Positions 16,646 to 18,025 of a DNA stretch of 56,702 nucleotides are shown here, piece after piece. Numbering within the stretch: the first letter of the stretch is position 1; each line of letters starts with the position of its first letter. A program made the translations under genes and the position numbers. The notes below the pieces were generated by a model. The model was not told the origin of the DNA. It worked only from the letters and a program-made list of their open reading frames with translations, and did not search any database. Source of the DNA: Enterobacteria phage 9g; sequence record NC_024146.1, one strand, 5' to 3'.

Positions 16646-16720
16646 GTTATCGCCCTCGTTGTTTGCTAGTAGGGGTATAATACTTAGAATTAAATTCCTT
16701 GTAAATACCCCTAAATATGA

Positions 16721-17230
16721 TTACAACTTACCAGTAGAACCAAAACCCCCGCGGCCCGTTTCTTCTACAATACCAGAAACAATGCGCGTACGAACCAACT
16801 CCACAAGACGCGCCTGTGCAATACGTTCGCCAACCTGGACTGTATAAGGTTCACAAGAGTCGTTATGTAGACGTATCTTCAACTCATCCCGGTAATCATG
16901 ATCAATGATACCAATACAGTTACCTAAACGAATGCCGTGTTTAAACCCGTGACCGCTACGTGAATAAACTTCCAGGCCGTAACCATGAGGGATCTGTAGC
17001 TTAATACCCGTGTTGAACGTATACGCACGACCACCATAGATAGTTACGGGCTCTGGTTCATCCGCATAGATATCAAAGCACATAGAACCTGGAGTGGCAA
17101 ATCGCGGCATCTGAGCAGTGTCCGTAAGGAGTTCCACAAGTAGCTGTTGCACAGCGCCATCTTGAACCGCAATAGTACCTTTGACAGTCACATCTTTGAT
17201 AATATCAGACATAGCGTCTTTGTTAGTCAT
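16721..17230 (-). CDS. dut: dUTP diphosphatase (dUTPase)
   Basis: dUTPase motifs RSGHGFKHG, GNCIGIIDHDYRDE, and C-terminal GRGGFGSTG (motif V). The longest ORF starts with GTG at 17239; the ATG at 17230 is preferred. Confidence 0.85.
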   Translation of the reverse strand: MTNKDAMSDIIKDVTVKGTIAVQDGAVQQLLVELLTDTAQMPRFATPGSMCFDIYADEPEPVTIYGGRAYTFNTGIKLQIPHGYGLEVYSRSGHGFKHGIRLGNCIGIIDHDYRDELKIRLHNDSCEPYTVQVGERIAQARLVELVRTRIVSGIVEETGRGGFGSTGKL

Positions 17231-17366
17231 GTTTTTCACTCTCTTTATTAAACAGACGTTGTTCCCATTGTTGCTTTAACTGATAATAACGATAAGCGTC
17301 CTCACCAGTTTCAGCTTCCCGTTGCATACGTTCACACCATTGAACAGGACTTTCCTCACAACTCAC
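17223..17366 (-). CDS. Small ORF (47 aa from GTG, or 34 aa from the ATG at 17326), acidic
   Basis: Not in the ORF track (<60 aa). AGGAGG immediately after the upstream stop, GTG 8 nt later; the stop overlaps dUTPase codons 2-3. Peptide: MSCEESPVQWCERMQREAETGEDAYRYYQLKQQWEQRLFNKESEKHD. Confidence 0.3.
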   Translation of the reverse strand: MSCEESPVQWCERMQREAETGEDAYRYYQLKQQWEQRLFNKESEKHD

Positions 17367-17378
17367 TTATTACACCTC

Positions 17379-17840
17379 CTAAGCGTGGCCGTTTCTCTTA
17401 ATGTATTCGTAAGCGTGTGATTTAAAGATTATCCGAAAATCTTCCAGGGATATTTCACATCTTGGAGGATCTTCTTTGTGATGTTTCGCTTCATCAGCGA
17501 AGAGCATGATAGGGTTCATATACAGGACTACGCGCCAGGACTTTTTATTTTGACGGTACATAAGAACTGGAAACTTGTCTGCTTCCAATGCACTCTTAAC
17601 ACACTGCGCCCACCATGTGTTAATTGATAGCTGCTCCTGTCGTTTAACTTCTACCGCATAGAAACAGGTATTTGTGATATCACAACCACCTACAGCACTC
17701 TGATTCTGATTACGTTGTGCTATGGGCTTTTCTGGATAAGTCATTCCAAGAGCGGCGTAAACTTCTTCGTAGATATCATTAAAGAATTTACAAATTTCAC
17801 GCTCACCTGTCTGACCTTTAGTACGAGGATTAGCTCCCAT
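17379..17840 (-). CDS. Putative PD-(D/E)xK nuclease (Holliday-junction-resolvase-like)
   Basis: Start moved to the ATG at 17840 (GGAGA 8 nt upstream); the longer ORF to 17897 would run through a terminator hairpin. Motif ...CFYAVEVKRQEQ (E-x-K) is compatible with a PD-(D/E)xK fold. Function is inferred. Confidence 0.4.
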   Translation of the reverse strand: MGANPRTKGQTGEREICKFFNDIYEEVYAALGMTYPEKPIAQRNQNQSAVGGCDITNTCFYAVEVKRQEQLSINTWWAQCVKSALEADKFPVLMYRQNKKSWRVVLYMNPIMLFADEAKHHKEDPPRCEISLEDFRIIFKSHAYEYIKRNGHA

Positions 17841-17857
17841 GTTATAAATCTCCATCC

Positions 17858-17884
17858 AAAAATAGGGGGTACACAAGTACCCCC
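17858..17884 (-). terminator. Intrinsic terminator-like hairpin (minus strand)
   Basis: gggggtac(17865-17872) / gtaccccc(17877-17884), 8-bp GC-rich stem, 4-nt loop; minus-strand RNA then reads UAUUUUU. Confidence 0.4.
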
Positions 17885-18025
17885 GAAAGCGAAGCATATA
17901 ATAGATAATAACATGTCAGCGAGAGGCAGCCTTCGAAAAGGGGTAATCTACCAACCACTCTCGCAAATAATGTTAACCTGTTTACGTGTTTGATTGCAAT
18001 ACACGAATTCATCAGAATTCACAGG

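Follow-up and report, generated by a model that had tools for sequence, protein, structure and literature searches.

A small DUF8272 gene, predicted to encode a helical hairpin, lies between the nuclease and dUTPase genes of coliphage 9g

We analyzed a small open frame in the genome of Enterobacteria phage 9g (NC_024146.1). The window, meaning the whole stretch of DNA analyzed, is 56,702 nucleotides long. The frame lies between a nuclease gene and a dUTPase gene, and the features of the locus, in the direction of transcription, are as follows.

17855..17884, minus strand: terminator-like GC hairpin with a T run, from a consensus scan, just upstream of the nuclease start.
17379..17840, minus strand: upstream gene, PD-(D/E)XK endonuclease, 9g_00020, 153 aa (Pfam PDDEXK_15, E = 1.6e-13).
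17380..17373, minus strand: Shine-Dalgarno sequence AGGAGGTG, read from the sequence, overlapping the nuclease TAG (17381..17379).
17223..17366, minus strand: small gene (9g gene 19; DUF8272 / phrog_1312), 47 codons plus TAA.
17235..17348, minus strand: predicted helical hairpin (AlphaFold2, 55-sequence alignment).
17327..17325, minus strand: internal ATG (codon M14), the start in the 9g GenBank annotation, giving the 34-aa 9g_00019.
17223..17230, minus strand: 8-nt stop/start overlap ATGACTAA, formed by the small-gene TAA and the dUTPase ATG.
16721..17230, minus strand: downstream gene, trimeric-type dUTPase, 169 aa (Pfam dUTPase, E = 1.9e-17).

The small gene opens with a GTG (17366..17364), closes with a TAA (17225..17223) and encodes the 47 residues MSCEESPVQWCERMQREAETGEDAYRYYQLKQQWEQRLFNKESEKHD. 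The initial annotation had described an unlisted acidic frame here, of 47 aa from the GTG or 34 aa from an ATG. Such an ORF is present at 17223..17366 and its product is indeed acidic, with a pI of 4.87 and a net charge of -4.4. The strand, which had been omitted, is the minus strand, and the internal ATG occupies 17327..17325 rather than starting at 17326. The frame is unlisted only with respect to the ORF track with a 60-aa cut-off used at that stage, since its exact 34-aa form is deposited as hypothetical protein 9g_00019 (AHN84535.1 / YP_009032342.1).

The upstream nuclease is an exact match to AHN84536.1 and matches phrog_244 with E = 7.8e-27. RefSeq and PHROGs label it a "RusA-like Holliday junction resolvase"; PDDEXK_15 denotes a putative phage endonuclease. 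The downstream dUTPase is 100% identical to the 9g dUTPase AHN84534.1, and its ATG (17230..17228) is preceded only by a weak GAGAG motif. The gene string that holds the small gene is opened by the GC hairpin at 17855..17884, and the records of HdSG1, HdK1 and SP8 have a terminator at the corresponding position. The hairpin and T run read GGGGGTACTTGTGTACCCCC TATTTTT and lie upstream of the real ATG of the nuclease (17840); the mechanically called 172-aa ORF (17379..17897) over-extends through the hairpin, the true nuclease being 153 aa. Within the small ORF itself, the consensus scan gave no promoter or terminator signal above chance. The region belongs to the early or early/middle replication module in the 9g paper (PMC4276943), which names just the dUTPase and the resolvase there (PMC4276943).

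The small gene is tied to both of its neighbors. A strong Shine-Dalgarno sequence, as initially reported, precedes the GTG, although it overlaps the nuclease TAG instead of following immediately after it; this TAG lies inside the Shine-Dalgarno sequence, 12 nt ahead of the GTG. The spacing from AGGAGGTG to the GTG is 6 nt, or 8 nt if counted from GGAGG, and the motif is unchanged in all ten relatives that carry the gene and in the metagenomic locus (L025). At the other end, the stop had been claimed to run over the dUTPase start, and TAA and ATG do overlap by 8 nt (ATGACTAA); the same overlap is annotated in relatives. A stop that overlaps or abuts the next start is the structural arrangement for termination-reinitiation coupling, and such coupling is presumed from the sequence at ATGACTAA.

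Is the small frame translated as a protein-coding gene? The region is 93–97% identical to Nonagvirus phages (JenP2, HdSG1, HdK1, ChristophMerian, JenK1, JenP1 and others). Measured against codon frequencies from the 21 long ORFs of the phage, the frame has a codon-usage log-likelihood of +17.6 bits, typical of the phage's own genes: the mean is 15.4 ± 7.7 bits for windows of 46 codons from real genes and -42 ± 21 bits for off-frame windows, none of which scores as high as the small ORF, and the remaining five frames of the ORF region range from -2 to -74 bits. Across 11 Nonagvirus copies the overall pN/pS is 0.16, a figure with few substitutions behind it, the relatives being 92–97% identical. 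Variable codons in the core (codons 2–37) of these copies comprise six synonymous, two missense (C3S and Q32K) and two nonsense changes, and the amino-acid changes fall mostly in the tail, residues 38–47. The metagenomic copy, which is 92% identical, keeps the frame, and its Q9E and R26H changes shift it towards the family consensus. We found no Rfam match in the 9g genome sequence, and the RNA fold z-score of the small-gene region is -0.34, leaving an RNA alternative unsupported.

Conservation of the frame in relatives had been proposed as a check on the gene, and its interruption as evidence against it. The frame is intact in eight of the ten GenBank relatives that carry it and in the metagenomic relative. 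It is interrupted in the other two: in SP8, Q29 is replaced by TAG and most of helix 2 would go, while in JenK1, Q36 is replaced by TAA and the whole conserved core remains. Together with the absence of the gene from two further relatives, described below, these premature stops indicate that the gene is dispensable, at least in the laboratory, and not that it is non-coding. For the same reasons, the selection that acts on it is weak or conditional.

Next to codon usage and the substitution pattern, protein conservation across phage families is the strongest of the three tests for a gene. The small protein matches phrog_1312 (E = 9.2e-13, 49.2 bits), with residues 1–41 aligned to positions 1–44 of the 46-position profile. 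Using tblastn, homologs with 35–62% identity were found in phages with unrelated DNA: Rtp-like Drexlerviridae (rtp12), the Salmonella phages Skate, Seszw and Vi II-E1, VP93-like Vibrio podophages, Aeromonas phages and phiEB49-like phages. A profile search that included the 9g protein returned 157 protein clusters, and a precomputed PF26839 assignment was present on all 120 among the matches listed. An exhaustive HMM search yielded 60 representatives after clustering at 50%, with lengths from 34 to 97 aa. The precomputed PF26839 (DUF8272) label is also carried by an 87% identical ortholog (P0001) and by the L025 gene at this locus. Scanning the protein and six homologs against a copy of Pfam-A that lacked the PF26839 model gave no matches at E ≤ 10.

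The family motif is P-x-x-W-C-x-x-M-x-[DE]-x-A-x-[DT]-G-[DE]-x-A-[YM]-x-Y-[YFH]-[QE]-L-x-x-x-W-x-x-R. In the 55-sequence alignment, conservation of W10, C11, Y27 and W34 reaches 90% or more, as does that of G21 in a trimmed alignment of tandem copies (A3), and the 9g protein has all five of these core residues. It shares with the other PF26839/phrog_1312 members (Rtp12 of coliphage Rtp, Skate_020, VP93-like and Aeromonas ORFs) the motif, a length of about 35–50 aa, a predicted two-helix hairpin and an origin in phages of Gammaproteobacteria. The Nonagvirus members differ in their 10-residue variable acidic tail (residues 38–47) and in their location inside a DNA-metabolism gene string and not among clustered small early genes. 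The closest orthologs, JenP2 gp49 (YP_009216987.1), HdSG1_00069, bas19_0047 and SE1 gp65, are 47 aa long and 91–98% identical to the 9g protein, which has F39 where these relatives have S or T. They resemble the 9g gene in locus, GTG start, Shine-Dalgarno sequence and 8-nt dUTPase overlap. Their records differ from that of 9g, in which only residues 14–47 are annotated.

We considered other assignments for the protein. Its acidity prompted the idea of DNA mimicry, which we set aside because acidity is not conserved in the family, whose pI varies from 4.8 to 6.7 and net charge from -0.3 to -4.4. Some database records of family members are labeled DUF3012 (PF11216), a Pfam family without a function. 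The 9g protein has no DUF3012 match at E ≤ 10, and a Pfam-A scan of 55 family members gave only noise, including DUF3012 on two of them with a best E of 0.045; we therefore rejected this membership. The 9g protein has no match among PADLOC anti-phage defense models or NCBIfam named families, and the scattered single-member matches of the wider family (best E 9e-4 and 0.02, respectively) amount to noise. Longer family members contain no informative fused domain; their extensions resemble miscalled starts or unrelated short N-termini. A literature search on PF26839, DUF8272, phrog_1312 and Nonagvirus small proteins returned nothing on the small gene.

AlphaFold2 predicts a helical hairpin for the 47-residue protein, with a mean pLDDT of 84.8 and values of 90–95 in the blocks covering residues 11–40. 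Helix 1 is formed by residues 7–17 (17348..17316), the turn by E19-T20-G21 and helix 2 by residues 21–44 (17306..17235). W10, C11, M14, A18, Y27, Y28, L30 and W34 make up a conserved hydrophobic and aromatic face. The best fold matches in BFVD were uncharacterized family members only (SE1Kor, TM 0.94; Rtp Q333H2, TM 0.78–0.91; and members from a Vibrio phage and Vi II-E1). A profile search of PDB sequences gave no match at E ≤ 10. As a probe for a homodimer, a linked-tandem AlphaFold2 run gave a pTM of 0.48, with the pLDDT of the hairpin below that of the monomer.

Comparison of the locus between relatives indicates how the gene is distributed. From the nuclease stop to the small-gene stop, the 9g sequence measures 156 nt (52 codons), and exactly this segment is missing from PD328 and FritzHoffmann, in which the nuclease stop overlaps the ATG of the next gene. 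In PD328 this next gene is the dUTPase, and the direct overlap reads ATGCCTAA. In the outgroups Ec1-ASingh, Seurat (Seuratvirus) and Vid5, the gene immediately after the nuclease encodes a dUTPase or a nucleotide pyrophosphohydrolase. The parsimonious reading is that a 156-nt accessory cassette was inserted in frame in one Nonagvirus sub-lineage, probably acquired by horizontal transfer. The small gene would thus be a neat natural plug-in cassette of 156 nt that preserves the presumed translational coupling on both sides.

The surrounding stretch varies in other ways. In FritzHoffmann (L011, 1422..2027) and Ec1-ASingh (L034, 1662..2267), an unrelated gene with a product of about 201 aa takes the place of the trimeric dUTPase; this gene is annotated as a dUTPase in FritzHoffmann and occupies the same slot, its start still overlapping the nuclease stop. 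JenK1, ESCO3, BRET and SE1 (L013, L016, L017 and L018) have an extra 318-nt gene between the dUTPase gene and the DUF7173 gene, a junction at which 9g has only a 75-nt gap (16646..16720). In SP8, an HNH homing endonuclease is inserted upstream of the nuclease. The stretch around the dUTPase and nuclease genes is a hotspot for gain and loss of small cassettes.

A metagenomic relative on a 60-kb contig encodes a 212-aa protein (P0188) in which the small protein is fused in frame to the dUTPase (...KESENMTNKD...), which explains why clustering at 90% groups the 47-aa protein with dUTPases. The fusion is consistent with the loss of one A from the A5 run (9g 17231..17240, GAAAAAC before the dUTPase ATG) and may reflect either a sequencing error in the homopolymer or a genuine fused variant.

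Among 12 independent genomic contexts of DUF8272 genes, we found no conserved partner gene. In Drexlerviridae the gene sits amid small early genes; in Skate it is followed by a terminator, with no other gene between, and points towards the lysis cassette; and on two metagenomic contigs it adjoins peptidoglycan-hydrolase-like genes. In VP93 it is flanked by the genes for endonuclease VII and a dNMP-kinase-like protein, echoing the order in 9g. The VP93 homolog, MASGEKPSEWCARMSREAKDGDTAYHYWQMQRHWESKGQ (L006, 2501..2617), is unannotated in RefSeq and annotated in sister phages.

The small frame, gene 19 of coliphage 9g, is a genuine phage gene that codes for a protein. The gene is already known, being deposited in the records of 9g and its relatives, and its family is catalogued as PHROG 1312 and Pfam DUF8272; the sole new point is that the deposited 9g form looks 13 codons too short at its start. 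Frame conservation and the occurrence of the family across unrelated phages support the initial reading of a real small gene with a strong Shine-Dalgarno sequence and a link to the dUTPase. We consider it very probable, as a whole, that the locus holds a genuine DUF8272 gene with a GTG start, carried on an accessory cassette, presumably expressed in coupling with its neighbors and encoding a predicted hairpin that may act as a binding module. Translation from GTG 17366 would yield a 47-residue soluble protein, modeled as a two-helix hairpin. With its Shine-Dalgarno sequence over the nuclease stop and its own stop over the dUTPase start, expression of the gene would be chained to that of its neighbors, and given both overlaps, ribosomes would pass from the nuclease to the small gene and on to the dUTPase.

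We propose that the product may be a non-essential cytoplasmic binding module which, when Gammaproteobacteria are infected, modulates a protein of either the host or the phage. Our best guess, at the level of a functional class, is a small protein-binding effector that is neither an enzyme nor a part of the virion. This reading is suggested by the very small size, the conserved hydrophobic and aromatic face, the location in an early/middle region and the sporadic loss of the gene. No conserved neighbor, fused domain or structural analog was found that would point to a target. T7 gp5.9 and lambda Kil are small helical phage inhibitor proteins, cytoplasmic and non-essential, encoded among early or DNA-metabolism genes. 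The small protein would be comparable to these, by analogy only, in its size, helical character, cytoplasmic location and non-essentiality.

More tentatively, DUF8272 could be an effector that moves horizontally and acts on the host, a hairpin used for host takeover or anti-defense; we hold this to be possible, at well under even chances. If true, Enterobacteriaceae, Vibrio and Aeromonas would share a conserved target, and DUF8272 would have been acquired independently by virulent Queuovirinae, Drexlerviridae, Skate-like siphophages and Autographiviridae. In 9g, the effector would have been plugged into a DNA-metabolism operon and be co-made with the nuclease and dUTPase. In a narrower variant, DUF8272 could modulate junction-resolving nucleases, as suggested by its position after unrelated resolvases in Nonagvirus and VP93-like phages.

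The small protein might instead be a dedicated partner or regulator of the adjacent nuclease or dUTPase, made in fixed proportion to it by coupled translation. The stop/start arrangement fits this idea, and the order of a junction nuclease, DUF8272 and a nucleotide-metabolism enzyme is common to two unrelated lineages: PDDEXK_15 nuclease, small gene and dUTPase in Nonagvirus, and endonuclease VII, small gene and dNMP-kinase-like protein in Vibrio phage VP93. However, the folds of the two nucleases are unrelated, and most family members lie near small early or lysis genes with neither a nuclease nor a dUTPase beside them. In addition, PD328 lacks the small gene but retains both this nuclease and the trimeric dUTPase, and the small gene is also absent from the outgroups. 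We therefore regard a dedicated partnership as unlikely.

The choice between the two candidate starts bears on whether the product is the 47-residue hairpin or a 34-residue peptide beginning at ATG 17327, as in the 9g GenBank/RefSeq records. The deposited 9g_00019 is exactly the shorter sequence, and start codons are more often ATG than GTG. The 34-aa form is present in a collection of 15 billion proteins, in which the exact 47-aa sequence has no match. However, the ATG is without a good Shine-Dalgarno sequence, whereas AGGAGGTG stands 6 nt before the GTG, and the 47-aa GTG form is annotated, as a hypothetical protein, in eight relatives (JenP2, HdSG1, HdK1, ChristophMerian, JenP1, ESCO3, BRET and SE1); the small gene is unannotated in the records of JenK1 and SP8. 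The common P7 and the near-invariant W10 and C11 all lie upstream of the ATG, whose M14 is a conserved internal residue of the family, and a product begun there would lose these residues along with most of helix 1. In the homologs elsewhere in phages, every start precedes the W-C motif. The near-invariant W10 and C11, together with the Shine-Dalgarno sequence, thus favor the GTG of the two starts initially offered. We conclude that GTG 17366 is probably the right start and that the internal ATG is probably not the true one; the 34-residue product is improbable. A start at GTG 17366 means that the deposited 9g_00019 is short by 13 residues, and the 34-aa annotation of 9g should begin at this codon, which adds the conserved W-C half of helix 1.

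Even less probable is that the ORF is a mere translational bridge to the weakly equipped dUTPase start, with a functionless peptide. Such a bridge would account for the 8-nt stop/start overlap ahead of a dUTPase ATG that has only the weak GAGAG upstream. Yet the cassette-less relatives couple the dUTPase straight to the nuclease stop, so a bridge is unneeded, and the protein is conserved (35–60% identity) in phages with unrelated DNA that have no dUTPase downstream. Within Nonagvirus, moreover, the core is under purifying selection and the variable part is the tail, over the ribosome-binding region of the dUTPase. Judged by sequence comparison, cross-family protein conservation would effectively exclude a bridge whose peptide does not matter. 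An untranslated chance frame in an intergenic spacer, to which the short length, the in-frame stops in two relatives and the absence from two others could point, appears effectively excluded by the significant family matches across unrelated phages and sits poorly with the gene-like codon usage, so that we give it almost no weight.

The family of this DUF8272 gene is small, widespread in easily manipulated coliphages (9g, the BASEL phages and Rtp) and provided with natural knock-outs in SP8, PD328 and FritzHoffmann, so that functional screens of phage small proteins could include it at little cost.

The 9g record may hold further small genes that are under-called or mis-started, as its close relatives have 84–115 annotated features against the 70 ORFs to which the 9g paper is limited (PMC4276943). 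A 24-aa ORF with a GTG start at 17948..18022 on the minus strand is annotated as a CDS only in BASEL relatives (bas19_0049 and bas20_0050).
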